DNA of 48,436 nucleotides from an uncultured Planctomycetales bacterium. Its GTDB lineage: Bacteria; Planctomycetota; Phycisphaerae; UBA1845; JAFGLZ01. Made by a program: the position numbers and the translations under genes. Location: contig CAZKCX010000001.1 in assembly GCA_964550865.1 (NCBI GenBank), positions 1 through 48,436 on the forward strand. Direction: 5' to 3'. The notes beneath the pieces were generated by a model. The model was not told where the DNA came from. It saw only the letters and a list, made by a program, of their open reading frames with translations, and searched no databases. Positions 13,231-48,436 of the stretch are shown here, piece after piece. The stretch's first letter is position 1, and each line of letters opens with the position of its first letter.

Positions 13231-13375
13231 AACTCTTTCCTTCCGAGCGTGCATGGTCGGACGGGTGCGCGGGGAGACGCGTTTGCCCGTCTTGCCGAAA
13301 GGTGCTATGACCTCCTGTGACGGTTTGCCCAGGGCCCTGGGCAATGTCGGCCAGCGAATCTTGGGAGGTGTGACT

Positions 13376-28513: not shown

Positions 28514-28520
28514 GACGATC

Positions 28521-31269: not shown

Positions 31270-32833
31270 TCGGAAGGTGCTCGCGCTCGACTGGGATCGC
31301 GAGTCGATCCGTATCGTCCATACGTCGACGAGCCGGAAGGGGCCTCGTGGCGTGCGCGGTGTGTTCGTGCCCGTGACGGAAGGGGTCGATATCGACGACC
31401 CGGAGGCGCTCGGCCAGTTCATCGGCCGCGCGCTGAAGCAGCGTCGCATTCGCACGCGACGGGCGATCGTCTCGATTCCCCGTGACCAGGCCGTTCTGCA
31501 CATGCTGAGCCTGCCGAACGTCCCGCCCGACGAGATGCCGTCGGTCGTGCACTTCCAGATCACGAAGGAGCTGCCCTTCGCCTTGGAGGAGGCGAAGATC
31601 GACTTCGCCACCTTCCCGGCCGAGGCGGAGGCCGAGAACGTCGATGTCCTCGTCGCCGCCGTGCGGAACGATGTGCTCGAGCACTACCAGCAGGTCTGCC
31701 AGAACGCCGGGTTGCAGCTCGAGCGGGTGGGCCTCCGGCCGTTCGCGAACACCGTGGCGGCCCTATACGGGCGTGAGGACGAGCAGACCGGCTGTCTCTT
31801 GCTGGTGGATGTCGGGCCGACGTTGACCGAGATCGACCTGATCCGGCAGGGTCGCCTGTCGTTCTCTCGCGCGGCGTCCGTGAATGTGCCGATCCTGCCG
31901 GCCGTTCGCAGTCAGGGCTCACTCGAGGGCGAGGGCGGGCCGGTGATGATCGCCCCGACGGACACCGAGCAGGAGGAGGCCGTCGAGAGCCTCATGGTCG
32001 AGGTGAACCGAACGATCGAGGCGTATCGGGTGACGGATCCCGGGGCCGAGATCGGCTCGGTGGTGATCGGAGGTTCCTGCGGGATCGAGGATCGCCTCTG
32101 TCGCGAGATCGAAGAGCGGTTCGGGGCGCCCGCGCGGCTGTACAACCCGGGTGAGACCATTGCCAAGCTGGCGGATCGCGGGGATGAGTTCGCCGCCTTC
32201 AGCGCTCCGCTGGGGCTGTCGATCGGTCACGGCACCGAAGGGGTCCTGCACTTCGACTTCCTCCATCCGAAGGAGCCCGTCGATCTCGGTCGCGAGCGGG
32301 CACGGCGGATTCCGATGATCGCCGCGTCGGTCCTCTTACTCCTGGTGGCCATGATGGGGTTCCGCTGGCGGGTCGGCAGCATTCGTGACGCCGAGGTCGA
32401 AGTGGTCAAAGAGAAGGCCGAGAAGCTCAAGGAAGAGGCGAAAGAGGTAGACGAGTTCAAGGACCAGGTCATGGCCGCCTCGGCGTGGGCGGAGCGGGAG
32501 CTCGTGTGGCTGGAGGAGCTGGCGACCATCACGAACCTCTTCCCGGATACGAGCGAGGTGTACGCTACGAAGTTCTATGCGAAGGACGAGGGGCGGATCA
32601 GCTTCGAGGTTCGCGCGAAGATCATGCCGCGCCTGGAGAAGCTGCGCATGGAGTTGGAGAAGCTCGGACCCTACATCGCGCGACTCGGCACGGTTAAGCA
32701 AGTCGGTGACGCGCGAGGGTACAACTTCCAGACCGACATCATCCTCCAGCGCAAGCCGGACGAGGACTTCAAGGGATCGGATACGAAAAGCAAGAAGGCC
32801 AAGTCGAATACGAGGTCGAAGCGGCGGCGCTAG
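31244..32833 (+). CDS. PilM-type actin-like assembly protein fused to a PilN-like TM/coiled-coil segment (GspL-equivalent)
   Basis: GTG 31244 after GAGGAAG. PilM-like N-domain: VLALDWDRESIRIVH...AIVSIPRDQAVLHMLSLPNVPPDEMPSVVHFQITKELPFALEEAKIDF...LLLVDVGPTLTEIDL. TM segment IPMIAASVLLLLVAMMGF. Lys/Glu coiled coil and a periplasmic domain follow. Confidence 0.8.
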   Translation: MRLPGPLADRKVLALDWDRESIRIVHTSTSRKGPRGVRGVFVPVTEGVDIDDPEALGQFIGRALKQRRIRTRRAIVSIPRDQAVLHMLSLPNVPPDEMPSVVHFQITKELPFALEEAKIDFATFPAEAEAENVDVLVAAVRNDVLEHYQQVCQNAGLQLERVGLRPFANTVAALYGREDEQTGCLLLVDVGPTLTEIDLIRQGRLSFSRAASVNVPILPAVRSQGSLEGEGGPVMIAPTDTEQEEAVESLMVEVNRTIEAYRVTDPGAEIGSVVIGGSCGIEDRLCREIEERFGAPARLYNPGETIAKLADRGDEFAAFSAPLGLSIGHGTEGVLHFDFLHPKEPVDLGRERARRIPMIAASVLLLLVAMMGFRWRVGSIRDAEVEVVKEKAEKLKEEAKEVDEFKDQVMAASAWAERELVWLEELATITNLFPDTSEVYATKFYAKDEGRISFEVRAKIMPRLEKLRMELEKLGPYIARLGTVKQVGDARGYNFQTDIILQRKPDEDFKGSDTKSKKAKSNTRSKRRR

Positions 32834-32900: not shown

Positions 32901-33962
32901 ATGGAGAAGCGACAACGGTACTTGATGATCGCCGTCGGGGTGCTGCTGGCCTTTGGTGTGGTCAGCCGGCTCGTTCCCTGGCTTCTCGATCCGATCACGA
33001 GCGCCGACAAGCGGATCCGGAGCTATCAGCGGAAGATCAAGGAATACCGAGGCAAGATCGAGCAGAAGCCGTTCTTGCTCGAGAAGTACCGTAGCCTGGC
33101 GAGCAAGACGTTGGGCTTGAGCGAGACCGAGGCCGGACAGGCCCTGCACGCGAAGATGGTCGAGGTGGCTAAAACCAGCAGGCTGCAGAGACCGACGATC
33201 GGACAAGCGTTCTTGCGCTCGTTCACCGATCAGGAGACGCGTTCGCGCATCACGATCGTGAAGGTCGCCATCAGCGGCCAGGGCTCGATCGCCGAGGTGG
33301 TCCGATTCCTGGAGAACTTCTACAAGCTGCCGTACCTCGTCCGGATTCGGACGCTCTCGTTGAACCCCTTCCACCAGCGAAAGGGTATGCTGCTCAAGAT
33401 CAACGCGGACGTTGAAGCGCTGGTGCTCCAGTCCCATCCGCTCGTCGATCCGGAGACCGTCGAGACGGCGGAGCTGGACATGAAGAAGCTCCCGCCGAGC
33501 GACCGCTACAAGCCGGAGAAGGCCAAGTTCTATCAGCAGGTGGTGCAGAAGAACATCTTCGAGCCGGTGGTCAAGGTCGCTTCGGAGCAACCGAAGGAGC
33601 GGACGCCGGTTCGCGGGCGGCCCCCTCGGAGAGGGCGTGACGCCCGGGAGGACGTGATTCTCGTCCTGGCCACCCGCTATCCGTGGGTCGATCCGCAAGA
33701 CGGCACGGAGTATCTGATCCAGGAGGCGGTAACGCGCAATAGCCGGACGAAGGAGAAGCTGGTTCGCCGGGTCGGTGAGGATTTCCATGGTCAAGGCACG
33801 CTAGTGTATGTGGATTCGTACGGCGCGGTCGTGCGAACGCCGCAGAAGCAGTACCTTGTATTCCCGTTGGGCAAGACCCTCAAGGACGGGGAGTCCCTAA
33901 GCCCCGAAATGCACCCCGATCTGTATCGGGCGGTACAAGAAATAGAAACACAGACCAAGTAG
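32901..33962 (+). CDS. PilO/GspM-like inner-membrane assembly protein with C-terminal extension
   Basis: 353 aa. N-terminal TM YLMIAVGVLLAFGVV, a coiled coil, and PilO-like VRFLENFYKLPYLVRIRTLSLNP. An Arg-rich linker and a ~110-aa beta-rich C-terminal domain follow. Confidence 0.6.
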   Translation: MEKRQRYLMIAVGVLLAFGVVSRLVPWLLDPITSADKRIRSYQRKIKEYRGKIEQKPFLLEKYRSLASKTLGLSETEAGQALHAKMVEVAKTSRLQRPTIGQAFLRSFTDQETRSRITIVKVAISGQGSIAEVVRFLENFYKLPYLVRIRTLSLNPFHQRKGMLLKINADVEALVLQSHPLVDPETVETAELDMKKLPPSDRYKPEKAKFYQQVVQKNIFEPVVKVASEQPKERTPVRGRPPRRGRDAREDVILVLATRYPWVDPQDGTEYLIQEAVTRNSRTKEKLVRRVGEDFHGQGTLVYVDSYGAVVRTPQKQYLVFPLGKTLKDGESLSPEMHPDLYRAVQEIETQTK

Positions 33963-34078
33963 GCGTATGCGCCCCTTCGGCAGGGAAGGCCGGGGCGGAG
34001 GCGCTTCGACAACCTCAACACCGCGGGGGTCCGCGTGCGATTCAGGCCCGGGCCGACGAACCGTGGAGGGATGTCCTT

Positions 34079-37000
34079 ATGATCTCTTCGTTACTATGGC
34101 GTCTTCGTAGGCGGTCCGGCGTGGTCGCGCTGGCGATTGGCATGGCCGTCGCGGGGGGCGACGGAGTGCTTGCCGCCGAGGCACCGGCACGGAAAGGAGC
34201 GACGACCCAGTCGGCTCGACGATCTCCCACGACGCTCCCGGCGAAGTCGAAGTCCGCCACCGTGGACAGAGCAAAGTTGGCCGAGGCGATGCGTCGTGCG
34301 CGGACGTCGACCCAACGTGCCGCTGCGACCGCACGGGCCCGCGCCGAGGCCCTGGCACGACAACGCCAGGCGACACAAGCCCGGACCTCGGAAGAATCCA
34401 ACCCGAGCAAAACGGCGCTCAGCGCGGAGGAGCGAAGAAACCGCTTCAAACGCCGCTTGCAGGAGATTCGCGAGCGATCCCGCAAGTCCCCGACCACCTC
34501 GGTGGAGACCCGGCAACTCGCCAAGAACTCCACACCGAAGGCCCCCGCACCCAAGGCGAACAACAAGAACGGGGCGCAGGGCCGGCCGACCCCGCCCCCG
34601 GCCGCCCCGCAGCCACCCCCCGAGGAGCGCAAGTACGTCCTGAGCTTCCAGAAGGCGACCTGGGACGAGATTCTCAACACGTTCTGTCGCTGGAGCGGCC
34701 TGACGATCATGGGCAAGTACCCCACGACGACGGGCGACGGCATTACGTACATCAACCAGCGGCCGCTGACGTACCATGAGGCCTTGCATGAGCTCAATCT
34801 TCTGCTGATGCAGAACATCCCCAGCTACTACCTGATGCGGGAGAAGAACCACCTCATGCTGCGGCGGATGTCGGATTGGCCCCATTACGTGCCGATGGAC
34901 AACCGTTTCTACAGCGTGGAGGAGTTCAAAAAGGCCGAGATCGACGACGACGAGTGGGCGATGGTCTTCTACACGCCCGAGGTCAGCGACGTCGGCGAGG
35001 TGATTACCGAGATCCTCCAGACCATGCCCGACGGCGTGGTCCTGCCGGCGACCATGGGCGAGACCAGGCGCCTCAAGGTCACGGGCATCGTCCACTACAT
35101 CCGCCAGTTTATCCGGCTGGCCGAGAGCGACATGTTCAAGGACGAGGCGGCCGACGCGGCGAAGCTCCGCAAGATCAAGTTCTACAAGATCGAGCGGGCA
35201 CAGGCCTCCTCGGTGCAGCAAGTCCTCGAGCGGATCGTTCTGCCGCCAAAGCGCACCCGGTTCACGAGCGCCGACGAATCGCAGAAGGTCGACATGGTGC
35301 TCGATCAACTCAGCAACACGATCATCGTCAAGGCCCGCGAGGAGCACCATCGCGAGATCGAGGCCATGATCGAGAAGATCGAGAAGGCCGAGCTGGTCTC
35401 GGACGCGCAGGTGACCTTCCTCAAGCTCGAGCACGCCCGGGCGGAAGACCTGGCCAACCTGATGAATCCGCTGCTGCAGCGGCAGGCATCGATGAAGCCG
35501 AGCTTCGATCGACGCCAACGGGAGCGGGAGCAGGTCTATCTCCAGGCGGATCCGGCCAGCAACAGCCTGATCGTGCTGGCGGCGAAGGAGGGGCTCGAGC
35601 GCGTCAAGAAGCTGCTCGAGCAGCTCGACGTCGAGACGCCGGAGGCCCAATACAGACGGATCGAGCTGGAGCACGTCAACGCCGACCAGATCTTCACGGT
35701 CGTCAACAACATCGTCCAGTCGCGTCAGGGGCGGTTCCGAGGCCGTCGCGGCGGCGGGCAGCAACTCCAGGTCATGCCGGATCCGACCGGCAACGCGCTG
35801 TTCGTGATGGGCAACCCGAAGGACATGGAGTTCGTCGAGGAGCTGGTGGCCGAGCTGGACGCCGAGGACGTCGAACGGACCAAGACGCACATCATCAAGC
35901 TCAAGAAGGCGCGGCCGAGCATGGTCTCGCAGGGCTTGCAGGCGATCTTCGGCGGGGACACCGGTGGACGACGACGCCGCACGCCGACGGGGTCCTTCCG
36001 CGCGCTACCGGACGATCAAAGCGGCGTGCTCGTGGTGATCTGCCTCGACAAGGATTGGAAGGAGATCGAGCAGCAGATCAAGGAATTCGACGAGCAATCC
36101 GTCAGCACCGATCCGGTCATGCGGACGATCCCGATCACGCATGGGGATGCCGAGGAGATCGCCACGACGCTGAACAACGCCCTACGAGGGCGTTTGGGTC
36201 GGACTCCCGTGACGGTCGGCGCCGACCGGAAGAACAACATGCTGTTCGTCACGACGCTGGAGCCGGCATTCGAGGAGATCGAGTCGCTGATTGAGAAGCT
36301 CGACAAGCCCAGCAAGGAGGGCAAGCTCGAGGTCATCCCGCTCCAACACGCCAGCGCGACCGACGTGGCCAACCTGATCACGCAGATGTTCACGGTGACA
36401 CGATCGCGCGGCCGATTCGGCGGCGGCGGGACCGCGCCGGTGATCATCCCGGACCAGATCGCCAACGCCTTGGTCGTTCGCGCGACGAAGACCGACCTGG
36501 CGGAGATCGAGCTGCAGGCCGCGCGGATCGACGACGCCGCTCGCGACGAGGGCAACAGGCCCACGATCATCCCGCTCGAGTACGCAGATCCGTCGCAGGT
36601 CGCCAGCATGTGCGAGACGATGTTCATCCGCCGGACGAGCCGGCGGAGCCGGTCCGCGGAGCAGACGACGTTCTTCATGCCGATCCCGACGGGGCTGGTG
36701 GTTCGTGCGCCCTCCCAGCAGATGGGCGAGATCAAGGATTTCATCGAGACGGTCGACTCCCCGGAGTCGGTGAACGTCGAGATCAAGACGGTGCAGCTGC
36801 CGGGCCAGGACGTCGAGCAGATCGCGAGCATCCTGCAGAACATGTTCGCCGGCGAGCGGCGAAGGCGTAGCGGCGGCGGCTCGATCAACTTCCTGCCGAA
36901 CCCGAGCTCGGACATGCTGGTGATCACCGCGCCCAAGAAGCGCTTCGAGGAGATCGACAAGGTCATCCAGCAGTACACCGAGGGTGTGAAGGTCGCGCAG

Positions 37001-40000
37001 GCGTCGATGAAGATGATCGACCTGAACAACGCCCGCGCCGACGAGGTCGCCCAGCTGCTGACGGAGATGCTCGGGGCCAAGCTCGGCCGTCGCGGACGTC
37101 GCAGCGAGATGCGTCAGGTGCAGATCCTTCGAGATCCCCGGCAGAACAAGCTGATCGTCTTCGCGCCGGACGACATCATGCAGCAGGCCGAGGAGATGGT
37201 GAAGCAGCTCGATGTGCCCATCGGCGACGAGGGCGGCGTGCGGTGGATCGAGCTCGAGAACGCCGACGCGAGCTACGTCGCCTCGACCCTCCAGCAGATG
37301 TGGGAGACGAAACAGCGACGTGGCCGTCCGCGCTTCGAGCAGCTGCCCGTGCAGATCTGGGCGGAGGCGATCACGAACTCGGTGCTGGTGATGGCCTCGC
37401 AGGAGGATTACAAGGAGATCGAGAAGCTCGCCAAGGAGCTGGACAGCAAGTTCAAGTCCGCCACGACCCAGCCGACGATCGTCAAGCTCAAGTACGCCGA
37501 GCCGAGCTACGTCATCACCATGTGCCAGGAGATGTTCCTGCCGCGGGCGGGCCAGCGTCCGGGTGCGCGACGGAGCAAGGCCACCGAGAGCATTTCCTTC
37601 ATCCCCATGCGGGACGGCCTGATGGTCCGCGCGCCCCAGTCGCGGATGAAGGACATCCTCGAATTCATCGAGAGGCTCGACGACCCGGGCGAGACCAAGC
37701 TGACCGTCAAACGCTACCACCTCAAGGGCATGGACGTCCAGACGCTGTACACCACGCTGAGCGAGGTCTTCAGCAAGACGGATCTCCAGCGCGATGAACC
37801 GCGCCCGGGCTTCGCCGTCGATCCACCGAACGAGACGGTGACGGTCACGTGTTGGACGTCCCGTCTGCCGGACATCGAGAAGGTCGTCGAGGACTTCAAG
37901 AAGGCCGAGGCCGAGAAGGAGCCCAGCAAGCGGGAGATGATCGAGGTCAAGTACACCCGCGCGACCTATGCGGCCTCGACGTTGGAGAGCCTGCTGCGGA
38001 AGGAACTGGGCGATCGGGCGGCCCGGCTGGGCAGTCGGTTGAGCATCGGCGTGGAGGATCGGTTGAATAGGGTCGTGGTCTTCGCCCCACCGGATGTCAT
38101 GGAGAAGGCCAAGGCGATCCTGGCGACGATCGACGTGAAGATGCCGGGCGCGACGACGCGCGCGTCGGACATCGACTTTCAGGTGGTCAAGTGGATCCCG
38201 ATGGAGAACATCGACGCGTCGTCGGCCGCGAGCACCATCAACCAGATCTGGGAGGCCTCGCAGCCGCCGCGCCGCTCGCAAGAGAACCGCCCGCCGATTC
38301 GGATCTGGCCTGAGACAATCACGAATACCGTGCTGGTGGCCGGGGCGTACGGCAAGGAGTACGAGCTCATAGAGACCATCGCCCAGGACATCGACCAGAA
38401 GGCGATCGAGAACCCCAACAAGCCCATCCTCATCAAGCTGGACTACGCCACGCCCAGCGAGGTGACCAGCATGGTCGAGGCGCTCTTCGTCCCGCCGGGC
38501 CGACGCCGTCAGAAGGAAGTGATGATCTCGACGGTGAGCGGCGGCGTGATCGTCCGGGCGCCGAAGGTCAAGCTGAAAGAGATTCAGGAGTTCATCGACT
38601 CCTACGACGAGCCCGACGCCACAGGCCTGAAGATCCAGACGTTCTACCTGCCGCAGACGAACGTCAGCGAGCTGGCCAGCACGCTGAGCACGATCTTCGG
38701 CTACAAGGAAAGACGACGAAATGAGCCCGGCTGGAGCTTCATCCCGAACACCGACGCCGACATGCTCATGGTGCTCGCTCCCGAGACCCGGATGAAGGAA
38801 ATCGAGGAGGTCATCAAGGAGTACGAGGAAAACGTTCAGAAGATGACCTCCAAGATGCAGATGTTCGACCTGCAGTTCACGCGGGCGGATTACGTCGTCG
38901 GGGTGCTGAACGATCTGCTCCGCGAGAAGCTTCGCCGCACGCGCGGACGGCGGGCCGTCAACCAACTCCAGATATCGTACGAGTCGCGGCAGAACAAGGT
39001 CGTCGTCTTCGCCCCCGACGAGGTGATGAAGCAAGTCGAGGAGATGATCAAGCAGATCGACATCGAGCTTCCGGACGAGGGCGATCGGGTCAAGTGGATC
39101 CAGATCGAGTACGCCGACGCCGGCGAGGTCGCCCAGACGGTCGAGCAGATGTTCGAGCAAAAGCGGGGGAGCCGGCGCCGCCGGGATTCGTACTCCATCC
39201 GCGAGGTCCGCATCTGGCCGGAGCGCGTCACCAACAGCATCCTCGTCAGCGCCGACCAGGAGGATTACGAGGAGATCGAGAAGCTCGCCAAGAAGATCGA
39301 CGAGGAGTACGCCACCAAGGGCCTGGAGCGCGTCAAGATCACGCCCAAGTACGTCAGCGTCAGCCAGATCCAGAGCCTCATCGACAGCCTGTTCTACGCG
39401 CGGACCCACCGGCGCGATGTGCGGCATCAGACCCAACGGATTCGCATCATCCCAGCCGGTGCGTACAGCTTCTTCCTGGAGGCGCCGAAGGACAAGCTTT
39501 CCGAGGTCCAGAAGCTCATTGAGGAGATGGACACTGAAGGCGAGAACGCCCCCATCGTCAAGACGTTCAAGATGGGTGACGTGGATGTCCGCCAGCTCGC
39601 TCAGGCGCTGAGCATGACCACGGGGAACATCGGGTCGTACATGCCGGATCCCCGCCGCGGGGCGCTGATCGTCAGCGCGCCGAAGCACCAGTTCGACCGC
39701 ATCGAAAAGGCGATGGAGCAGCTCAAGGCCGACATCGAGGAGGAGGAGGCCCAGTTCCGTGTCTTCACGCTCAAGCATGCCCAGCCCAACGCCATCGATG
39801 GCCAACTACGATCCCTCATCAGCATGCGCCTGAGCCGTCGCACCCGCTACCGCGGGGAAGACCTGCGGCTTTCGCTGATGGCCGATCGGAGCAACAACCG
39901 GCTGTTCGTCTACGCCGGGCCGGAGGAGATGGCCCTCGTTGAGTCGATGTTGGAAGAGCTCGACGTACCCGGCCTCAGCCAAGAGGCCGTCCTGCGGACG

Positions 40001-43000
40001 CTGCCCCTGGAACGGACCGACTGCGAATACATGGCCAGCGTGATCCAGCAGGTCTTCACACCCGAGGAGCTCAAGCGCCGTCGCGTCCGTCGCGGCATGT
40101 CCTCGCAGGACGCCATCCCGATCCGCGTCGTGCCCGAGCCGACGACGAACACGCTGCTGGTTACCTGCGCGGAGGAGGACTTCCGCGAGATCGAGCTCTT
40201 CGTCGCCCGGCAAGAGGACGCGTATCGGGAGAAGGAGAAGGCCCTCGAGCTGATCACGCCGAAGTACGTGACGGAAAGCCAGCTGATGGCCACGGTGAAC
40301 GCGATCTACAACCCGCCGCGTCGTCGCGGGGAGCGCCAGAAGCGCTATACGGAGATCCGCGCAATCCCGGCCAGTGGCAGCAGCTTCTTCCTGGAGGCGC
40401 CGAAGGACAAGATGGAAGAGCTGAAGGAGCTGATCGCCAAGCTCGACGTCGAAGACCAGAACCGGCCCGTCGTCCGTACCTACAAGCTCAAGGACGTCGA
40501 CGTGCGGCAGCTCACGCGGCTGCTCCAGACCACGATGCAGAACAAGGGAAGCTTCATCGCGGACCCGCGAATGGGCATGGTCATCGTCAGCGCTCGGGAG
40601 TTCCAGTTCCCCGAGATCGAGGAGATGATGACCAAGCTCCAGAAGGACTTCGAGGAGACCCGCCAGCAGTTCGAGATCATCGAGCTCGAGCACGCGCGGC
40701 CGAGCTCGGTCTACAGCACGCTCAGTCAGCTGGTCAGCATTCGCATGAGTGAGCGGCGGAGTCGACGCGGCCAAAGCCTTCAGCTCTCGATGATTCCGGA
40801 CGACAGCAACGGGCGGTTGTTCGTCTATGCCGCCCAGGAGGAGATGGAGCTGGTCAAGGAGATGCTCGGGAAGCTGGACATCCCGGGGATGATCAAGGAG
40901 GCCCAGCTCTTCACGATCGAGTTGGATCGTCTGGATTGCAGCTATATGGCCAGCAAGATCCAGCAGGTCTTCACGCCGGAGGAGCTCAAGCGCCGGCGCG
41001 TCCAGCGCGGCGATTCGGCCCAGGACCTGATCCCGATCCGCGTCGTCCCCGAGGACATGACCAACTCCCTCCTGATTACCTGCGCCGAGGAGGACTTCCA
41101 GGACATCCAGAAGTTCGTCATGGAGCGCGAGGCCGCCTACACGAAGAAGGACAAGGTCCGCGAGCTGATCACGCCGAAGTTCATCAGCCAGAACCAGCTG
41201 ATGGCCACGATCAATGCCATCTACAATCCCCCGCGGCGGCGGGGGGTGCGTCAGAAGGACGTGCCGGACATCCGGGCGATCCCCGCCAGCGGCAGCAGCT
41301 TCTACCTGGAAGCGCCCAAGGACAAGATGCCCGAACTGCTCGAGCTGGTGAAGACGCTCGATGTCGAGGACGAGAACCAGCCCGTCGTGCGGACCTACCG
41401 CGTCAAGGACGTGGACGTCCGCCAGCTCGCGAGCCTGCTGCAACAGACGATGCAGAACAAGGGCAGCTTCTATGCGGACACGCGGATGGAGATGCTCATC
41501 GTCTCGGCCCCGGAGTTCCGGTTCGAGAAGATCGAGCAGACGATGAACGATCTAAAGGAGAACCTTGAGGCCGTCCGTCAGCAGTTCAAGGTCTTCCCGC
41601 TGAAGTTCGCCAAGGCGAGCAACATCTATAGCCAGCTCAGCCAGCTCGTCACGACACGCGTTCGCGGACGTCGGGGCAACGCGGAGCTGACGATTCTGCC
41701 CGACCAGGTGCTCAACCGCCTCTTCGTGTACGCCGGTGACGAGGAGATGAAGGTCGTCGAGGACATGCTCGCCGAGCTGGACGTCGAGGGCGTCGAGCCC
41801 GAGCAGCAGGTCTACTCGATCGAGCTGGAAAACGCCGACTGCAGTTGGGCCGCGTCCATGGTCCAGAACATGTTCACGCAGGAGGAGCTTCGCCGGCGTC
41901 GTCGGGGTCGGACCGGAACCGTCGTCGCGCCCATCCGCGTGCTGGCCGATCAGATGAGCAACCGCCTGCTGATCTGGGCCTCGCCCCGCGACTACGAGGA
42001 CATCGAGAAGTTCGTCATGGAGCTGGACGAGCGCGCGGAGGAGACCAAGATCGAGCGGCGGATCCTCCAGCCGAAGTTCATCCGCGCGAACGAGCTGTAC
42101 GGCATGATCCAGACGCTGTTCCTTCAGCAGCGTCGACGGACCGGCCAGCGCCAAGAGTTCATCGAGACGTTCATGGTGATGAGCGGGGCCGACATCATCC
42201 TAAATGGCCCGAAGGACCGGCTCGACGAGATCGAACAATTCGTCAAGTCGGTCGATACCGAAGAGCGCGCCAAGCTCGAGATCAAGACCTTTGAGCTGCC
42301 CGACGTCGATCTGAACTCGCTCATCTCGATGCTCAACCAGGTCTTCGCGCAGGATGCGCGGCGGCAGCGCGGCAACACGCTCTTCATCCCGGATCCGCAG
42401 AACAACGAGTTGATGGTCTCTGCACCGAAGTCGCTGATGAAGGACATCGAGGAGTTGATCGACAAGAAGCGCGAGGGCGCGGCCAAGCGAAGCCGCAGGC
42501 TCACGATGGTCGAGGTCAAGCACACCGACGCGAACTACCTGGCGAACATGTTGCGCCCCTTAATCGTCGAGAAGGCGCGAAGCCGTCGCGGTCGGTACGT
42601 CCAGCCGGAGGTCACGATCACCCCCGAGCCGCGCATGAACCGGCTGTTGATCATGGCCGCCGAGGCCGAGACGCAGATCGCCATGGAGCTGATCCAGGAG
42701 CTGGACACCGAGGCCATGGCGCTGAAGGGACAGGTCCGGACGATCGAGCTCAAGAAGGCGGAGGCCAGCTACGTCGCCAGTACGCTCCAGACGATGTTCA
42801 GCCGACGGAGCCAGATGCGCCAGTCGTACTCGTCCTCGACGACACCGGTGTACGTGGTGGCCGAGGAGATGACGAATCGGCTCTTCGTGGCGGCCAGTGA
42901 TGCGGACTTCAAGGAGATCGAGAAGCTCGCCCAGGAGATGGACGAGGCCGCCGAGCTGGAAGGCGTGCAGGAAGAGAAGATCGAGATCAAGTTTGCCAAC

Positions 43001-46000
43001 CCGAGCCAGCTCGTCAGCGTGATCCAGCAGATGTTCACGCCGCTCAAGAGCCGCGGCCGTCGGCAGGAGAGCGACGTCCGGTTGAACGTGATGGGCACAA
43101 ACATCATCGCCCAGGCGCCGGCCAAGAAGATGGTCGAGATCAAGCGGTGGATCCAGGAGCTGGACGTCGAGGAATTCGCCGAGACGGTGACGAAGTTCAT
43201 CCCGTTGGAGATCGCCCGCGCGCGGGAGATCGTCGGCATCATCCAGCCGATGCTCCAGGCCAAGGCGCAGGAGCTGGAGCTTCGGCAGGGCCAGCGGAAG
43301 CGTCGCGGCGGGGAGCTTCAGGTGTTGCCGGACGTCCGGAACAACCGCCTGATCATTACCGCGCAGAGCCAGATCGTCACGATGGCCGAGGAGTTGATCA
43401 AGGAGCTCGACGTCGAGGACCCGGCGTGGACGGGGGAGACGGTGGAGATCGTCGACCTCGACAAGGCCGACGCCACACAGGTCGCCCAGGTGCTCGACCA
43501 GATTCTGCGCGACGACGAAGGGGGGCGCCGGCGCCGGCCGAAGAAGGGCAGCAGTCGAGAATACACCGGACTCGCGGTCACGATCGTGCCCGATGCGGCC
43601 AGCAATACCCTCATCCTCAAGGGCCTGCCGCGCGAGCTGGATCGCGTCAAGGAACTGGTCGCGGAGATCGAGGAGAAGGCCGTCGCCGGCGGCGTGCAGT
43701 TCCAGCTCTATCGTTTGGAGGAGTCGGACGCCGAGGAGGTCGCCACCGTCGTCCAGCAGATGGTCACGGCGGCAAGCGGCGCGCGAGGCCGCCGCGCGCC
43801 CGTCCAGGTCACGAGCAACTACATGATGAACGCGGTCTTCGTGGCGGGCACGGCCAAGCAGCAGACGATGGCCAAGGCCGTGATCGACGCGTTCGAGGAG
43901 CCCGCCTACGAGATCGACCCGGTGACCGGTGAGAAGACCCTTATCGAGCGAAAGCCGTTCGAGTTCATCACGCTGGAGTACTCCGACGCGTACGATCTGC
44001 TTTATGACATCGAATCCCTCGTGGAGAAGCGGTTTGGTGAAAAGGGACCAACGCTCGAGACCCTCTGGAATGACTCGTCGGTGCTAATGGTCAGCGGCAA
44101 GCCCGACCAGGTGAAGTACGTCAAGGAGTTGGTCCAGTTCTTCGAGGACAAGAACGCCAAGAAGCCGCCCGTCACGCGGACGTTGGACCTGGGCATGCTC
44201 AGGGCGGAGGATCTCAAACGCCAGCTCGGTGCCTGGGGATTGGCCGATCCGAACAAGGTGACGCTCGTGGGCGAGGAGCCCGTCGGCGAGCTGGTCAAGG
44301 AGATCACGATCAAGCACGCGATGGAGCTTCGCCAGCAGGCAAAGGACCCGAACTTTTCGGAGAAGGAAGGGGGGCGCACGCGATCCAAGAAACTCTATCG
44401 CAAGCCCAAGACGAAGAAGGGCGGTTCGCGGTTCGAGCCGCCGAGCGTACTCGCGGAGTTGCGGGCGGAGTTAAGTGGCATCGTTTGCTCGGCCAAGGCC
44501 ACAACGACGAAGCCCGTGACCACACAGCGGACCAAGACGCTGAAGATCCGCAAGAAGAAGGCGCCGACCACCGCAGCGGTCAAGAACGCGGCGACGGTGA
44601 AGGCCAAGGCCAAACCCAAGTCTCCGCCGGCGACGAAGAAGCAAGATCCCAAGGCGAAGTCGTCGGGCAAGGCCAGGGCCGATGCGGCGAAAGCCGCCGC
44701 CGAGAGGAAGCAGGATCCCAAGGCCAAGAGTGCGCCGAAGAAGGCCGACTCGCCGTCCGCGGCCGACACCAAGAAGATCCTAGGCAAGTCCAAGCCGAGC
44801 AAGTCGACCGCCGAGCCGGTCGTCAGGCAGGCGACGACGGCGCCGCCGAAGGCCATCCAGGTGGCCACGCCCGACAAGTCTGAACCGAAAGCAAAGCAGC
44901 GGTCGTCGCGCAAGCCGGCCGCGAAGTCGAACGCCAAGACCGCCCCAGCGAAGACCAAGCCCGCCAGCGCCAAGAAGGATCCCGAGGCAAAGGCGGCCAA
45001 GACGGAGGCGGCACCTTCGAAGGCGGGCGGCTCGGAGGCTGCGAAAAAGGCCGCCACGGCAGAGGCCACGGAACCCGTAGCGCCGAGGCGCGAGTCCTCG
45101 GACGCCGAGTCCCTTGGCCTCGGGATGCGGCGAACTCGGGGCGATGAGCCAAGGCAGCGAAGGCAGCCGCCGGTTGAGGTCATCATCGACGCGAAGACGG
45201 GCACCATTCAGGTTAAGGGTCCCGACCGCAAGGTGGCGGAGATCGAGGAGTTGATCGGTACGCTCCAGTGGGAGATCGAGCCGCCGGCCGGCAAGGAGAC
45301 CGAGATCCGGGTCTATCAGCCCGAGTACATCGACGTGAACGTAGCGGCGGCGCTGTTGGAACGGGTGTTCAACGAGCGGCGCAAGCGGGTTGTTCCTCCC
45401 AAGCGGACCGCGCAGAAGGGCAAGAAGGAGGAGAAGAAAGAACCGGACGAGGAAGAGCGGATGATGTCGAATCTCCGCGAGATGATGCGAAGCCAAGGGG
45501 CAGCCGCCGCGGCGGCGGGGCTCCGCATCGTGCCGGATTCCCGTACGGGCTATCTCGTGATTCGGGGCCATCCCGAGACGATCGAGGAGGCCCTCGAGCT
45601 GTTGGCGAAGATGGACGTGCCGGGCCTGCCGCCGGGGGATATCCGGTACTTCCACTTGGTGAACCTGGACGCCCAGGAGGTCGAGCAGAGCCTCAAGGCC
45701 GTTCTGAAGCTCGAGACCCGACGGCCGAAGCTGCCGGCGATCCCGAAGGATCAGAACAAGGCCATCAAGGCCCTCCAGCAGCAGATCCAGCAGCTGCAAG
45801 GTGCGACGGGTGGCGTGGCGTTTACAAGCGATCAGGTGACGATCACGTCCAACGCCTCGACGAATACGTTGATCTGCATGGCGCCGGACGAGGTGATGAA
45901 GGAGATCGAGGACTTCATCGACACGCTCGAGACCGAGGCGGGCGGCATCGAGATCGAGACGCTCACGCTCGATGCGGCGGACGCCACGCAGGTCGCCAAG

Positions 46001-48436
46001 TCGATGACGTCCCTGTACAGCCGTCGTGCGGCGGCCGGCAAGGGCAGCGCGGCCGGTGGATTGCTGACGATCACCGCCGACGCGGCGAGCAACACGATCT
46101 TCGTCCGCGGCCCGAGGGACCTCCGCGCCGAGGTGATCGCGCGAGTCAAGGAGCTCGACTCGCAGGCATCTGAGATGGGCAAACCCTTCCGCATCGAGCT
46201 GACGAACGCCGACGCCGAGGTGATTGCCCCGAAGCTGCAGGCCATGTTCGAGACGCGGAAGGCGCGCAAGAGCCAGCAGGTGTCGTTCTTCGGCGACAAC
46301 GCGAGCAATACCCTGGTGGTCCGCGCGCCGGAGACCATGCGCGAGCAGATCATGGAGATGGTCAAGGCGCTGGATGTGGAGTCGGTCGACATCGACTTCC
46401 GCGTGTTCCCGCTCGAGCACGCGATGGCGACCGAGGTCCATCAGGCGCTCACCCAGATGACGATGCAGGTCTTCGCCCAGCTTCGCCAGCAGGGAAAGCG
46501 AAACATGAAGATGGACGTCTTCGCGGCCGTTCCCGATCCGCGGACGAATTCGCTGGTGGTCACGGGCGGCGAGACGACGTTCCTGATCGTCGAGAAGATC
46601 CTCTCCCAGCTGGACGTCGAGCCGCGCGGTGTGACCGAGCAGGTGACCGTGCTCTATCAGCTCCAACAGGCGGATGCCTCACAGGTCGCTCAGGCGATCA
46701 CCCGTCTGTACTCGAGCGGACGTGGCAGCCGGTACCTCAAGAAGACAGGGATGGAACCCCCACAGGCGGAGTACGACAGCATCACCAACACCGTGATCGT
46801 CCGCACCACCGAGAAGCTGCACAAGATGATCAAGAAGGAGATCATCGATAAGCTCGAGGACTTCAGCAAGAACAAGAAGATCAAGGACGTCACGCTCGCG
46901 CTGGAGCACGCCAAGGCCGACGACGTCGCCCAGATCCTGACGGAGTACTTCTCGCAGAAGGAGCGCCGACGGCGGGGCAAGGCGAACCCCAACGACTTCG
47001 TCCTGATCGTCGCGGAGCCCGACACCAACTCCCTCCTCATCCAGGCCAACGAGGAGAATCTGGAGGTCATCCAGGGACTCGTTGCGAAGATGGATCGCGA
47101 GGACGTCGCCGGCCGGAGCGCCCGCAAAACCAAGGTGATCCAGCTCGAGTACGCCGATCCGGGCTCGACGGCGTCGGCGATCCGCCAGGCGTTTGAGGAT
47201 GGGCGGCGGAGTCGTCGCAGTCGCGTGGGCCTTCGGGATCGCGTGGACGCCGTGCCGGAGTACACCACAGGCAGCCTGATCGTGACGGCCAGCGCCGAGA
47301 ACATGAAGGAGGTCGACGCGATCATCGAGCAGCTGGACGTCGAGACCGCCACGAAGCGCGAGACCAAGCAGGTCAAGCTCGAGCACGCCGACGCGACGGA
47401 AGTGGCCCGTCAACTCACGCAGATGTTCTCCCAGACGCGGGGCCGGACGCGACGCGGGATCCTGCCGGTGATCGTGACGGCGGACGAGCGGACGAATTCC
47501 GTGATCGTTTCGGCGAAGGCGAAGGACCTTACCGAGGTCGAGAAGCTCGTCAAGACGTTGGACGTCCCGAGCGACCTGCTGGAACGTCGCAAGCTGCGGA
47601 TCTTCCAGCTCGAGTGGGCCGATCCGTACGGGATGGCCCAGATGATCTCCCAGGCGTTCCGTACCCGAGGTGGGCGGCGGAGCCCCAGCCAGGAGGTCTT
47701 CGCGACGGCGGAGTACTCGACGGGCTCGCTGATCGTCTCGGCCTCGCCGGACAACATGGAGTTGATCGAGCAACTGGTCAAGGACGTGGACCAGGAAGGC
47801 ACGACGGGAAAGAAGATGCACGTGCTGGAGGTCAAGAACGCCGAGGCGGCCGACATCGCCGACGCGCTCGAGGACATGTTCGTCCGCGGTCGCCGCCGAT
47901 CGCGAGGCGGCCAGACGCCGGTCTCCCTCGTCAGCCCGGAGGGCACGAACAAGATCATGGTGATGGCCAGCGAGGCGGAGTACAAGAAGATCGCCGAGGC
48001 CGTGCAGGAGATGGACGTCGGCGCGGCCGATACCGCCGTCCGGTCGATCCGGCTGGTGAACATTGCGCCGGAAGAGGCGCAGACGATCCTCGAGGAGTTC
48101 CTGCGCAAGCCGGGGCGCCGCAGGCGATACGACCCGACGCTCATGGGCAACGTCCGCGTGACGGTGAGTCCGTCGGCGGGATCGCTGATCATCACGGCGC
48201 GGAAGGAGAAGCTCGACGAGCTGGAGGCGCTCATCAAGAAGATCGACGCCGAGGCCGCGGAAGAGGGCGCGGGCGTCCGCAAGATCGCCGTCTTCCGCCT
48301 GGATTTCGCCAATCCGTACTACACCGCTCAAGCGATCAGCACGACGTTCCGGAAGTCCGGGCGGGTGGCCGAGAGCGATCTGGTGACGGCGACCGCCGAG
48401 GCGAGCACGAGCGCGGTGATCGTCGCGGCCAGCGAG
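34079..48436 (+). CDS. giant secretin-family (GspD/PilQ-like) protein: signal peptide + N0-like domain + ~53 tandem secretin N-domains; 3' end outside window
   Basis: Not in the ORF track because the frame never closes. No closed plus-strand ORF is listed in this frame after 34079. Manual codon-by-codon translation found no stop over 14,358 nt, which is exactly 4,786 codons. SD GGAGGG at 34064-34069. Signal peptide MISSLLWRLRRRSGVVALAIGMAVAGGDGVLAAEA. N0-like domain KYVLSFQKATWDEILNTFCRWSGLTIMG...TYHEALHELNLLLMQN. Repeated 70-85 aa units follow the consensus h.h.L..A.A..VA..L..MF-(Arg-rich loop)-h.h..D..TNSLhV.A......IE.Lh..LD. Confidence 0.85.
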   Translation, partial: MISSLLWRLRRRSGVVALAIGMAVAGGDGVLAAEAPARKGATTQSARRSPTTLPAKSKSATVDRAKLAEAMRRARTSTQRAAATARARAEALARQRQATQARTSEESNPSKTALSAEERRNRFKRRLQEIRERSRKSPTTSVETRQLAKNSTPKAPAPKANNKNGAQGRPTPPPAAPQPPPEERKYVLSFQKATWDEILNTFCRWSGLTIMGKYPTTTGDGITYINQRPLTYHEALHELNLLLMQNIPSYYLMREKNHLMLRRMSDWPHYVPMDNRFYSVEEFKKAEIDDDEWAMVFYTPEVSDVGEVITEILQTMPDGVVLPATMGETRRLKVTGIVHYIRQFIRLAESDMFKDEAADAAKLRKIKFYKIERAQASSVQQVLERIVLPPKRTRFTSADESQKVDMVLDQLSNTIIVKAREEHHREIEAMIEKIEKAELVSDAQVTFLKLEHARAEDLANLMNPLLQRQASMKPSFDRRQREREQVYLQADPASNSLIVLAAKEGLERVKKLLEQLDVETPEAQYRRIELEHVNADQIFTVVNNIVQSRQGRFRGRRGGGQQLQVMPDPTGNALFVMGNPKDMEFVEELVAELDAEDVERTKTHIIKLKKARPSMVSQGLQAIFGGDTGGRRRRTPTGSFRALPDDQSGVLVVICLDKDWKEIEQQIKEFDEQSVSTDPVMRTIPITHGDAEEIATTLNNALRGRLGRTPVTVGADRKNNMLFVTTLEPAFEEIESLIEKLDKPSKEGKLEVIPLQHASATDVANLITQMFTVTRSRGRFGGGGTAPVIIPDQIANALVVRATKTDLAEIELQAARIDDAARDEGNRPTIIPLEYADPSQVASMCETMFIRRTSRRSRSAEQTTFFMPIPTGLVVRAPSQQMGEIKDFIETVDSPESVNVEIKTVQLPGQDVEQIASILQNMFAGERRRRSGGGSINFLPNPSSDMLVITAPKKRFEEIDKVIQQYTEGVKVAQASMKMIDLNNARADEVAQLLTEMLGAKLGRRGRRSEMRQVQILRDPRQNKLIVFAPDDIMQQAEEMVKQLDVPIGDEGGVRWIELENADASYVASTLQQMWETKQRRGRPRFEQLPVQIWAEAITNSVLVMASQEDYKEIEKLAKELDSKFKSATTQPTIVKLKYAEPSYVITMCQEMFLPRAGQRPGARRSKATESISFIPMRDGLMVRAPQSRMKDILEFIERLDDPGETKLTVKRYHLKGMDVQTLYTTLSEVFSKTDLQRDEPRPGFAVDPPNETVTVTCWTSRLPDIEKVVEDFKKAEAEKEPSKREMIEVKYTRATYAASTLESLLRKELGDRAARLGSRLSIGVEDRLNRVVVFAPPDVMEKAKAILATIDVKMPGATTRASDIDFQVVKWIPMENIDASSAASTINQIWEASQPPRRSQENRPPIRIWPETITNTVLVAGAYGKEYELIETIAQDIDQKAIENPNKPILIKLDYATPSEVTSMVEALFVPPGRRRQKEVMISTVSGGVIVRAPKVKLKEIQEFIDSYDEPDATGLKIQTFYLPQTNVSELASTLSTIFGYKERRRNEPGWSFIPNTDADMLMVLAPETRMKEIEEVIKEYEENVQKMTSKMQMFDLQFTRADYVVGVLNDLLREKLRRTRGRRAVNQLQISYESRQNKVVVFAPDEVMKQVEEMIKQIDIELPDEGDRVKWIQIEYADAGEVAQTVEQMFEQKRGSRRRRDSYSIREVRIWPERVTNSILVSADQEDYEEIEKLAKKIDEEYATKGLERVKITPKYVSVSQIQSLIDSLFYARTHRRDVRHQTQRIRIIPAGAYSFFLEAPKDKLSEVQKLIEEMDTEGENAPIVKTFKMGDVDVRQLAQALSMTTGNIGSYMPDPRRGALIVSAPKHQFDRIEKAMEQLKADIEEEEAQFRVFTLKHAQPNAIDGQLRSLISMRLSRRTRYRGEDLRLSLMADRSNNRLFVYAGPEEMALVESMLEELDVPGLSQEAVLRTLPLERTDCEYMASVIQQVFTPEELKRRRVRRGMSSQDAIPIRVVPEPTTNTLLVTCAEEDFREIELFVARQEDAYREKEKALELITPKYVTESQLMATVNAIYNPPRRRGERQKRYTEIRAIPASGSSFFLEAPKDKMEELKELIAKLDVEDQNRPVVRTYKLKDVDVRQLTRLLQTTMQNKGSFIADPRMGMVIVSAREFQFPEIEEMMTKLQKDFEETRQQFEIIELEHARPSSVYSTLSQLVSIRMSERRSRRGQSLQLSMIPDDSNGRLFVYAAQEEMELVKEMLGKLDIPGMIKEAQLFTIELDRLDCSYMASKIQQVFTPEELKRRRVQRGDSAQDLIPIRVVPEDMTNSLLITCAEEDFQDIQKFVMEREAAYTKKDKVRELITPKFISQNQLMATINAIYNPPRRRGVRQKDVPDIRAIPASGSSFYLEAPKDKMPELLELVKTLDVEDENQPVVRTYRVKDVDVRQLASLLQQTMQNKGSFYADTRMEMLIVSAPEFRFEKIEQTMNDLKENLEAVRQQFKVFPLKFAKASNIYSQLSQLVTTRVRGRRGNAELTILPDQVLNRLFVYAGDEEMKVVEDMLAELDVEGVEPEQQVYSIELENADCSWAASMVQNMFTQEELRRRRRGRTGTVVAPIRVLADQMSNRLLIWASPRDYEDIEKFVMELDERAEETKIERRILQPKFIRANELYGMIQTLFLQQRRRTGQRQEFIETFMVMSGADIILNGPKDRLDEIEQFVKSVDTEERAKLEIKTFELPDVDLNSLISMLNQVFAQDARRQRGNTLFIPDPQNNELMVSAPKSLMKDIEELIDKKREGAAKRSRRLTMVEVKHTDANYLANMLRPLIVEKARSRRGRYVQPEVTITPEPRMNRLLIMAAEAETQIAMELIQELDTEAMALKGQVRTIELKKAEASYVASTLQTMFSRRSQMRQSYSSSTTPVYVVAEEMTNRLFVAASDADFKEIEKLAQEMDEAAELEGVQEEKIEIKFANPSQLVSVIQQMFTPLKSRGRRQESDVRLNVMGTNIIAQAPAKKMVEIKRWIQELDVEEFAETVTKFIPLEIARAREIVGIIQPMLQAKAQELELRQGQRKRRGGELQVLPDVRNNRLIITAQSQIVTMAEELIKELDVEDPAWTGETVEIVDLDKADATQVAQVLDQILRDDEGGRRRRPKKGSSREYTGLAVTIVPDAASNTLILKGLPRELDRVKELVAEIEEKAVAGGVQFQLYRLEESDAEEVATVVQQMVTAASGARGRRAPVQVTSNYMMNAVFVAGTAKQQTMAKAVIDAFEEPAYEIDPVTGEKTLIERKPFEFITLEYSDAYDLLYDIESLVEKRFGEKGPTLETLWNDSSVLMVSGKPDQVKYVKELVQFFEDKNAKKPPVTRTLDLGMLRAEDLKRQLGAWGLADPNKVTLVGEEPVGELVKEITIKHAMELRQQAKDPNFSEKEGGRTRSKKLYRKPKTKKGGSRFEPPSVLAELRAELSGIVCSAKATTTKPVTTQRTKTLKIRKKKAPTTAAVKNAATVKAKAKPKSPPATKKQDPKAKSSGKARADAAKAAAERKQDPKAKSAPKKADSPSAADTKKILGKSKPSKSTAEPVVRQATTAPPKAIQVATPDKSEPKAKQRSSRKPAAKSNAKTAPAKTKPASAKKDPEAKAAKTEAAPSKAGGSEAAKKAATAEATEPVAPRRESSDAESLGLGMRRTRGDEPRQRRQPPVEVIIDAKTGTIQVKGPDRKVAEIEELIGTLQWEIEPPAGKETEIRVYQPEYIDVNVAAALLERVFNERRKRVVPPKRTAQKGKKEEKKEPDEEERMMSNLREMMRSQGAAAAAAGLRIVPDSRTGYLVIRGHPETIEEALELLAKMDVPGLPPGDIRYFHLVNLDAQEVEQSLKAVLKLETRRPKLPAIPKDQNKAIKALQQQIQQLQGATGGVAFTSDQVTITSNASTNTLICMAPDEVMKEIEDFIDTLETEAGGIEIETLTLDAADATQVAKSMTSLYSRRAAAGKGSAAGGLLTITADAASNTIFVRGPRDLRAEVIARVKELDSQASEMGKPFRIELTNADAEVIAPKLQAMFETRKARKSQQVSFFGDNASNTLVVRAPETMREQIMEMVKALDVESVDIDFRVFPLEHAMATEVHQALTQMTMQVFAQLRQQGKRNMKMDVFAAVPDPRTNSLVVTGGETTFLIVEKILSQLDVEPRGVTEQVTVLYQLQQADASQVAQAITRLYSSGRGSRYLKKTGMEPPQAEYDSITNTVIVRTTEKLHKMIKKEIIDKLEDFSKNKKIKDVTLALEHAKADDVAQILTEYFSQKERRRRGKANPNDFVLIVAEPDTNSLLIQANEENLEVIQGLVAKMDREDVAGRSARKTKVIQLEYADPGSTASAIRQAFEDGRRSRRSRVGLRDRVDAVPEYTTGSLIVTASAENMKEVDAIIEQLDVETATKRETKQVKLEHADATEVARQLTQMFSQTRGRTRRGILPVIVTADERTNSVIVSAKAKDLTEVEKLVKTLDVPSDLLERRKLRIFQLEWADPYGMAQMISQAFRTRGGRRSPSQEVFATAEYSTGSLIVSASPDNMELIEQLVKDVDQEGTTGKKMHVLEVKNAEAADIADALEDMFVRGRRRSRGGQTPVSLVSPEGTNKIMVMASEAEYKKIAEAVQEMDVGAADTAVRSIRLVNIAPEEAQTILEEFLRKPGRRRRYDPTLMGNVRVTVSPSAGSLIITARKEKLDELEALIKKIDAEAAEEGAGVRKIAVFRLDFANPYYTAQAISTTFRKSGRVAESDLVTATAEASTSAVIVAASE
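36322..43170 (+). repeat. in-frame tandem super-repeat of a four-N-domain cassette (period ~900-945 nt, ~7.5 copies) inside the giant secretin gene
   Basis: Type-a domains start at ~36322, 37238, 38181, 39086, 39987, 40901, 41803 and 42728. Three copies are in exact 915-nt register, anchored at 39440, 40355 and 41270. Confidence 0.7.
44340..45170 (+). other. Lys/Ala/Pro/Thr-rich low-complexity spacer (~275 aa) embedded in the giant secretin ORF
   Basis: Translation: ...RSKKLYRKPKTKKGG...TKPVTTQRTKTLKIRKKKAPTTAAVKNAATVKAKAKPKSPPATKKQDPKAKSSGKARADAAKAAAERKQDPKAKSAPKKADSPSAADTKK...KPAAKSNAKTAPAKTKPASAKKDPEAKAAKTEAAPSKAGGSEAAKKAATAEATEP... Confidence 0.8.

Follow-up and report, generated by a model that had tools for sequence, protein, structure and literature searches.

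A giant gene of arrayed secretin N-domains at the end of a type II secretion-like operon in a planctomycete bacterium

The stretch of DNA analysed here (the window) comprises 48,436 nucleotides (nt) of an uncultured Planctomycetales bacterium (GenBank assembly GCA_964550865.1, contig CAZKCX010000001.1, positions 1 to 48,436), and its last 14 kb are taken up by a single open reading frame (ORF) that is still open where the window ends. This ORF is a genuine gene, from a Phycisphaerae-like member of the Planctomycetota, that encodes a GspD-type N0-N1 module followed by at least 53 secretin N-domains and stands last in an operon that resembles those of type II secretion systems (T2SS). On comparison with its closest relatives, it probably encodes the long pore-less arm, termed D1 here, of a secretin that is built from two polypeptides and belongs to the adjacent operon, the pore being carried by the product of the next gene (D2).

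Translation from the ATG at 34079-34081 to position 48436, the last base of the window, gave 4,786 codons (14,358 nt) without a stop, in agreement with an earlier interpretation of this DNA that was made without database searches (the sequence-only reading). The visible product has a mass of 539 kDa, and the nearest in-frame stop on the 5' side of the ATG lies at 33776. A GGAGGG motif had also been reported 9 nt ahead of the ATG; the motif is present, although the measured spacing is 8 nt.

34065-34070, plus strand: Shine-Dalgarno-like GGAGGG, 8 nt from the ATG, read off the sequence
34079-48436, plus strand: giant ORF of 4,786 codons, open at the window end, identified by stop-free translation and a Secretin_N match of 1,172 bits

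At a GC content of about 64%, stops make up about 2.7% of random codons; a run of 4,786 codons without one would arise with a probability of about e^-127, and hence the frame is not open by accident. Antisense and off-frame ORFs of up to 1,207 amino acids (aa) overlie the giant gene. They were considered as real genes and rejected, as none of them has a Pfam match; they had been called shadow ORFs before, and this description holds.

An assembly artefact (a repeat expansion or a chimera) or a decaying pseudogene is an extremely improbable explanation of the gene. It could be argued from the fact that short-read contigs from three runs in the Logan collection break inside the gene, at exactly 36973 or 39495, and that a distant relative is interrupted by frameshifts in a long-read assembly. 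However, the N-domains are mutually only 27% identical on average (maximum 74%). At the DNA level, exact repeats inside the gene do not exceed 31 nt, and the two most similar internal segments match at 68% over 1.8 kb. The same operon was found in three independent Logan assemblies (SRR7048223, SRR7048224 and SRR7048225), the contigs of which are 99.99-100% identical to the window and cover the first 2.9-5.4 kb of the giant gene. Collinear orthologues exist in several independent assemblies, and the frame has no stop over 14.4 kb. Misassembly was rejected on these grounds. Logan assemblies use a k-mer of 31, equal to the longest exact repeat in the gene, which may account for the breaks at 36973 and 39495.

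The composition of the protein was examined with profile searches. Pfam Secretin_N (PF03958), which the sequence-only reading had proposed to run across the array, scored 1,172 bits on the giant ORF, with 38 stretches passing individually. A hidden Markov model (HMM) iterated on the protein itself recognized 53 domains, all with i-E < 1e-8, the same number that had been arrived at by manual parsing. The domains follow each other with a median start-to-start period of 78 aa, and the spacing between those of the first array is mostly 9-14 residues. The 53rd and last domain ends at model position 53, where the window ends. The visible protein is organized as follows.

34079-34177, plus strand: signal-peptide-like N-terminus, aa 1-33 (basic n-region RLRRR, hydrophobic core, VLA/AE), from translation by eye with an AxA-like site
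34178-34603, plus strand: Arg/Ala-rich low-complexity segment, aa 34-175 (aa 1-175 contain 19% A and 15% R, net charge +26)
34604-35179, plus strand: GspD-type N0-N1 module, aa 176-367 (profile E = 3e-17, AlphaFold2 model and Foldseek)
35180-44143, plus strand: N-domain array 1, 39 consecutive Secretin_N domains, aa 368-3355 (iterated HMM)
36566-42976, plus strand: within array 1, seven tandem four-domain super-repeats of about 305 aa, aa 830-2966, 28 domains (offset-4 identity and collinear alignment)
44144-45121, plus strand: Lys/Ala/Pro-rich linker of 326 aa, aa 3356-3681, without a domain match (18% K, 18% A, 9% P, net charge +42), presumably disordered
45122-48436, plus strand: N-domain array 2, 14 Secretin_N domains, aa 3682-4786, the last one partial (iterated HMM; aligns to residues 3941-5066 of the orthologue P0003, described below)

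The N-terminal module is of the kind found in T2SS secretins. A profile made from aa 176-367 and homologues (16 family members) matched the N0-N1 structures of GspD and XcpQ (4e9j, 5ngi, 5wln, 5wq7 and 3ezj) with E-values down to 3e-17. An AlphaFold2 model of the module reached a mean local confidence (pLDDT) of 86 and a predicted template modelling score (pTM) of 0.76, and the best 25 matches found with it by Foldseek were all secretin N0-N1 domains (PulD, GspD and XcpQ; 3ezj, 5ngi, 3oss and 6hcg), with TMq 0.57 and a root-mean-square deviation of 3.7 Å against PulD 6hcg. The N0-like domain proposed earlier is thus confirmed by both profile and fold. In T2SS secretins, the N0-N1 end faces the inner-membrane platform. 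A model of one four-domain block (pLDDT 77) showed four beta-alpha-beta-beta-alpha units, and its 37 best matches in the PDB were all secretins of type II or type III secretion systems. The prediction of domain segments that had been suggested earlier was thus run on monomers; it recovered secretin folds but left the geometry between domains undefined (pTM 0.34).

In 35 of the 53 N-domains, Arg and Lys are clustered in the alpha1-beta2 loop region (e.g. RGRFRGRRGGG), although the domains are near neutral overall. If the N-domains form rings, these loops would give evenly spaced basic belts.

The pore domain of secretins (PF00263) was not found by Pfam in the 4,786 visible residues. Because it is absent both from these residues and from the complete orthologues, the giant protein is most likely to be classified as an N-domain subunit of the secretin family and not as a strict-sense secretin.

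With aa 3587-4786 as query, an exhaustive HMMER search returned 3,649 representatives at E < 1e-3, 463 of them at E < 1e-30, and the architecture was analysed for the top 150. Nearly all of these are 2,500-5,500 aa long, and almost every full-length family member has the N0-N1 module at its N-terminus. Of the 150, about 100 are single-chain giants composed of N0-N1, 30-58 N-domains and a C-terminal pore, such as P0006 (5,532 aa, 58 N-domains and pore), the gene of which sits after the same T2SS operon, and P0007 (5,063 aa, 53 N-domains and pore). A further 44 are pore-less.

The best match to the window protein belongs to the pore-less type. This protein, P0003 (5,437 aa; GCA_964446835.1, locus L005), is collinear with the window ORF, with 59% identity over 4,655 aa, and ends without a pore at a real stop 371 aa beyond the position at which the window ends. 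The stop is followed by a spacer of 72 nt with a GGAAC/GGGG stretch resembling a ribosome-binding site, and then by a new start, which opens a second gene; its product of 1,823 aa has a signal-like N-terminus and a spacer ahead of 14 N-domains and PF00263. The same layout of two genes was found at loci L006 (3,448 + 1,672 aa) and L007 (3,228 + 1,827 aa), and in all five of the closest GTDB relatives (L008-L012; 58-71% identity to the tail of the window), which were located by a scan with a two-sequence alignment of this tail. All complete loci of the pore-less type have this layout (7/7). The explanation of the P0003 stop as a sequencing error or as a site of read-through was considered, given that gene 2 lies in the same frame at L005, and rejected. 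The stop is taken as real because the terminal half-domain and Arg tail recur in many independent assemblies, and because the spacers range from 72 to about 350 nt with frames that agree in only 3/7 loci, about the 1 in 3 expected by chance.

The pore-less proteins share a characteristic end, which consists of the last full N-domain, the beta1-alpha1 part of another and usually an Arg/Ser/Gly tail that finishes in RRR. In 33 of the 44 pore-less representatives, the final match covers only model positions from about 1-7 to about 24-34, and most of the others look truncated. A crude neighbour-joining tree of the N0-N1 module placed the pore-less proteins in two pure clades, one of which includes the window ORF. 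Most pore-less relatives also have an A/P-rich linker at an equivalent position, and such a linker is present in the window protein. Since the nearest orthologue, the five GTDB relatives and the pore-less clade all lack a pore on this chain, the pore is most likely to be encoded by the next gene. The sequence-only reading had expected PF00263 downstream on the same polypeptide; in relatives it does lie downstream, but on a separate gene in every complete locus of the pore-less type. By the same comparison, the window gene should stop about 0.3-2.3 kb past the window, in the beta1-alpha1 half of an N-domain with an Arg-rich tail. The next gene should then encode about 1,800 aa with a signal peptide, a spacer, a beta2-beta3-alpha2 half domain, 14-15 full N-domains and PF00263.

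The downstream secretins of the relatives were seen to share a C-terminus, ...DSYE[HY]YLQQRR, which comes after a Pro-rich 'YGPxKPxYGP' stretch.

The boundary between the two genes could be inspected in the relatives (L005:26240-26420; L006:16680-16910; L007:16420-16580; L008-L012). The C-terminus of gene 1 matches positions 2-30 of the N-domain HMM, and the first recognizable element of gene 2 matches positions 30-66 (L005), 41-66 (L006) or 36-66 (L007) and lies one normal linker ahead of the first full domain. When both halves were joined in a chimera, the N-domain model matched over its full length. Conservation of the second-half segment is strong among the five close relatives (LPEL..LRGRVEIVPTGPDT..IQGDEEAVAALE.IIR.LD); it scored 10.5, 8.8, 7.9, 5.1 and 2.6 bits in them, against a 99th percentile of 3.5 and a maximum of 6.4 in 1,000 shuffles. 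Because gene 1 ends with the first half of a domain and gene 2 opens with the second, the arrangement suggests that an undivided gene underwent fission within the alpha1-beta2 loop of an N-domain. The two halves might reassemble in trans and in this way join both polypeptides.

The array bears the marks of growth by blocks. The mean identity between N-domains at an offset of four is 38.5%, compared with about 25% at other offsets, and the seven super-repeat blocks align collinearly with 24-58% identity to the first. The window protein and P0003 are separated by one indel of 306 aa, which is exactly one super-repeat (P0003 residues 2078-2383). In a typical pore-less relative, N0-N1 is followed by about 10-12 N-domains, then by an A/P-rich linker (200-500 aa), and then by about 16-24 further N-domains before the half domain; in the lineage of the window, 39 domains precede the linker, and the excess of 28 equals seven four-domain super-repeats. 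Since orthologues differ by whole blocks and the excess corresponds to seven super-repeats, the array has evolved through the tandem duplication and the loss of units of four domains. Its length is still labile among close relatives, in which between 114 and 753 aa separate the equivalent of the window end from the stop.

With respect to taxonomy, every named member of the family that was looked up comes from Phycisphaerae or from unclassified metagenome-assembled genomes (MAGs) of Planctomycetota, and the GTDB relatives of the window are MAGs of Planctomycetales and Phycisphaerae. The planctomycete setting considered by the sequence-only reading is therefore correct. The proteins carry automatic names such as 'secretin N-terminal domain-containing protein [Phycisphaerae bacterium]' or, in IMG, 'type II secretion system protein D'. 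No published description of giant secretins was found in the full-text literature, including a 2025 review of the phylum and surveys of giant proteins, which is not proof of absence.

A distant relative was noted in a near-complete long-read genome (L004:10001-20608; ENA ERZ25039495 contig_3253, 4.63 Mb). Its secretin region of about 10.6 kb encodes about 27 N-domains and PF00263, and is split by frame switches into at least seven called ORFs, owing either to long-read indel errors or to a pseudogene; it is too frameshifted to be classed as a one-gene or a two-gene locus. As short-read assemblies break within such genes and gene callers split them, giant secretin genes have probably been under-counted.

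The genes upstream of the giant gene, all in the same orientation, are listed below.

22442-24349, plus strand: GspE-type secretion ATPase with an MshEN-type N-domain that binds cyclic di-GMP, start codon uncertain (TIGR02533, 643.6 bits against a cut-off of 630.25; NF053729, 43 against a cut-off of 38)
24827-26044, plus strand: GspF platform protein (PF00482, E = 2.2e-52)
26171-26623, plus strand: GspG major pseudopilin (N_methyl and T2SSG on the identical gene in L001)
26691-29669, plus strand: three pseudopilin-like genes of 292, 314 and 358 aa, H/I/J-like (gene calls of L001; weak N_methyl, faint T2SSJ)
29713-31269, plus strand: GspK minor pseudopilin (T2SSK_1st, E = 1.1e-16; T2SSK, E = 1.1e-7)
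31244-32833, plus strand: PilM/GspL-like platform protein (PilM_2, E = 6.6e-23; TIGR01175; weak GspL match)
32901-33962, plus strand: GspM-like protein of 353 aa, a weak assignment (NF040576, E = 1.3e-4, below cut-off)

The giant gene is thus the last of a co-oriented GspE-F-G-(H/I/J-like)-K-L-M-like operon and occupies the usual place of gspD. The position of the GspM-like gene ahead of the giant gene is kept in relatives. The sequence-only reading had named the giant gene the secretin of the adjacent operon. Its membership of the secretin family and of a T2SS-like operon is supported by the GspE, F, G, K, L-like and M-like neighbours, but a pore of its own is not to be expected on this polypeptide, as P0003 and the other relatives end pore-less. 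Both MshEN and T2SSE are on record for the Logan gene that is identical to the GspE ATPase. Because this ATPase has an MshEN-type N-domain, the secretion machine may be regulated by cyclic di-GMP.

A mechanism can be proposed in which D2 would form the outer-membrane pore together with the first 14-15 periplasmic rings of N-domains. D1 would join D2 non-covalently, possibly by completing the split N-domain in trans, and would extend the N-domain assembly inwards until its N0-N1 end reached the GspL/M/F/E platform in the cytoplasmic membrane. Each protomer pair of D1 and D2 would then contain about 72-80 N-domains. At about 4 nm per stacked ring, an estimate derived from the PilQ of Thermus, 53 rings would be about 0.2 µm long and 72-80 rings would form a conduit or tether of about 0.3 µm, which could keep the pseudopilus machine coupled to the pore across the enlarged and variable periplasm of planctomycetes. 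These bacteria have an enlarged, invaginated periplasm, and envelope complexes of unknown molecular identity have been described in them as 'press-stud' links between the membranes (PMC5394234). That the structure is a trans-periplasmic tube of about 0.25-0.3 µm, with two polypeptides joined by an N-domain assembled in trans, about 72-80 stacked rings and a length tuned by four-domain blocks, is suggested tentatively, as a possibility; the conclusions at the level of the genes are far firmer. N-domain arrays of similar size are fused to pores in sister lineages, which speaks for the proposal as a whole. Several points weigh against it. The 3' end of the window gene lies beyond 48436, and no contig of the same organism that extends it was found in JGI metagenomes or Logan contigs, so that its assignment to the pore-less type, most likely as it is, comes from orthology and phylogeny. 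The matches to the half-domains are individually weak (i-E 2e-4 to 0.06). No GspC, the usual partner of N0, was found with Pfam and NCBIfam among the ORFs of the operon region; it may be too divergent or encoded elsewhere. With regard to the tube itself, the low pTM of the four-domain block leaves the relative orientation of the domains undefined, the presumably disordered 326-aa linker is no less compatible with a tether than with a rigid tube, and a structure of about 0.3 µm would be a large fraction of the cell diameter.

The same genes could be subject to other physics. If the array did not assemble into 12-15-fold rings, it would be a flexible, extensible periplasmic tether or scaffold, with its domains arranged as beads on a string or those of one chain packed side by side; it might then merely hold the inner-membrane platform near the pore, or organize the periplasm or the cell wall around the machine. 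We regard this as doubtful. The cationic linker in the middle of the array, similar to those of most pore-less relatives, would suit such a function, as would the low inter-domain confidence of the models (pTM 0.34), the free variation of array length by whole blocks between close relatives, and the variable and invaginated nature of the planctomycete periplasm (PMC5394234). On the other hand, the same domains form rings in every solved secretin (Foldseek neighbours; PMC5745081), the linkers between them are short and uniform (9-14 aa) with a regular period of 78 aa, and single-chain relatives have unbroken arrays of 40-58 domains that run straight into the pore.

Two further explanations depart from the two-gene secretin itself. 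In one of them, the window gene would be a single-chain giant secretin, the ORF running past the window end into a C-terminal PF00263 of its own. About 100 of the 150 top representatives, P0006 and P0007 among them, are built in this way in the same operon context, and the end of the window gene is out of view; yet we judge this improbable, as P0003 and the five GTDB relatives closest to the window (58-71%) end pore-less with the conserved half-domain and Arg tail, the N0-N1 module of the window falls within a purely pore-less clade, and the protein has the long A/P/K-rich internal linker that is a hallmark of pore-less members. In the other, a giant repetitive secreted or surface protein (an adhesin or a fibre) would have been made from secretin-N/KH-like domains and would be a substrate, not a part, of the neighbouring T2SS. 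For Omnitrophota, a secreted or adhesive function has been proposed for giant repeat proteins encoded beside T2SS-like loci (bioRxiv 10.1101/2023.11.21.568195), and many giant bacterial proteins are adhesins. Nevertheless, the protein starts with a true GspD N0-N1 module, and in sister proteins an array of this kind continues into a pore. Moreover, an N-domain is divided between this gene and the downstream secretin gene, and the gene occupies the gspD position in the operon, which together make this explanation very improbable.

The two-polypeptide secretin proposed here can be compared with known systems. GspD, PulD and XcpQ (5wq7, 6hcg and 5wln), which have the organization N0-N1-N2-N3 plus pore, share with the window protein the N0-N1 module, N-domains of the beta-alpha-beta-beta-alpha type and the last place in a gspE-F-G-...-K-L-M operon. 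They have three N-domains, in contrast to at least 53 here, and the cationic linker of 326 aa is found only in the giant protein. Unlike in these secretins, no pore is present in the 4,786 visible residues or in the complete orthologues, in which it is on a second gene, and no GspC was recognized here. The PilQ of Thermus thermophilus, which has the longest N-domain stack in the literature consulted, with six rings (N0-N5) and a length of 350 Å, spans a wide periplasm and has been called exceptionally long (PMC5745081). The use of additional N-rings to span a wide periplasm is the functional logic that is also proposed here. PilQ has six domains on a chain of 757 aa, however, whereas at least 53 are present on the window chain and about 72-80 would be present in each D1 + D2 pair; it belongs to a type IV pilus and DNA-uptake system and not to a T2SS-like one, and its ring stacking is established, whereas that of the giant array is inferred. 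An expansion of the N-domains by more than tenfold over characterized secretins had been claimed before, and it stands at 53 or more domains against the six of this exceptional case (PMC5745081).

In the mitochondrial T2SS of some eukaryotes, GspD is split into a pore protein and the proteins GspDN1-3, of which GspDN2 and GspDN3 represent the C- and N-terminal halves of an N-domain (PMC8134430). The secretin is thus divided among polypeptides, with the same break point inside an N-domain as between gene 1 and gene 2 in the planctomycetes. The pieces there are single or half domains and N0 is absent, whereas the detached piece here keeps N0-N1 and dozens of domains; the system here is also bacterial, with the two genes adjacent. 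Further parallels are the single-chain giants of Phycisphaerae MAGs, which are known from database entries only (MFP4104932.1, 4,756 aa; HUW81391.1, 4,066 aa; MFQ5423301.1, 4,904 aa). They have the same N0-N1 module, an array of 30-58 domains, the same operon context and the same phylum, but their pore is on the same chain and many of them are without the long A/P-rich linker. What lies outside the described secretins is the scale of at least tenfold, the growth by super-repeats and the split of D1 from D2 within an N-domain; the domains and the system themselves are those of secretins and of the T2SS.

Few outer-membrane machines have been studied as thoroughly as secretins, for which two to six periplasmic N-rings are regarded as normal in structural work. 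In the window protein and in well over a hundred clusters of public proteins (at 50% identity), a chain contains 30-60 N-domains, and in one clade the secretin is split exactly within an N-domain into an arm that bears N0 and a body that bears the pore. If the domains stack as they do elsewhere, the result would be, to our knowledge, by far the longest protein conduit proposed for a bacterial envelope. Such a tube would be a molecular answer to the question of how trans-envelope machines cope with the enlarged, invaginated periplasm of planctomycetes, and might be one component of the unidentified links between the two membranes that electron cryo-tomography has revealed. If the domains do not stack, the array would represent a new use of the N-domain as a modular periplasmic spacer.

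A few observations were made on the remainder of the window. Just upstream of the T2SS operon, a prepilin-like protein is encoded (19369-20178, plus strand) with an N-terminal methylation motif and a weak match to DUF1559 (SBP_bac_10), a type of protein that is very abundant in Planctomycetota. The regions 2692-7894 and 13253-14854 contain genes for UPF0261, purple acid phosphatase, a GH2 glycosidase and sulfatase, a set which is typical of polysaccharide-degrading planctomycetes; enzymes of this sort might be cargo of the T2SS. Finally, a gene for an HNH endonuclease with a winged-helix domain (8982-9902, minus strand) adjoins one for a C-5 cytosine DNA methylase (9889-11358, minus strand). 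The pair lies in a dip of the GC content (0.58, compared with about 0.63) and is probably a restriction-modification or mobile islet.

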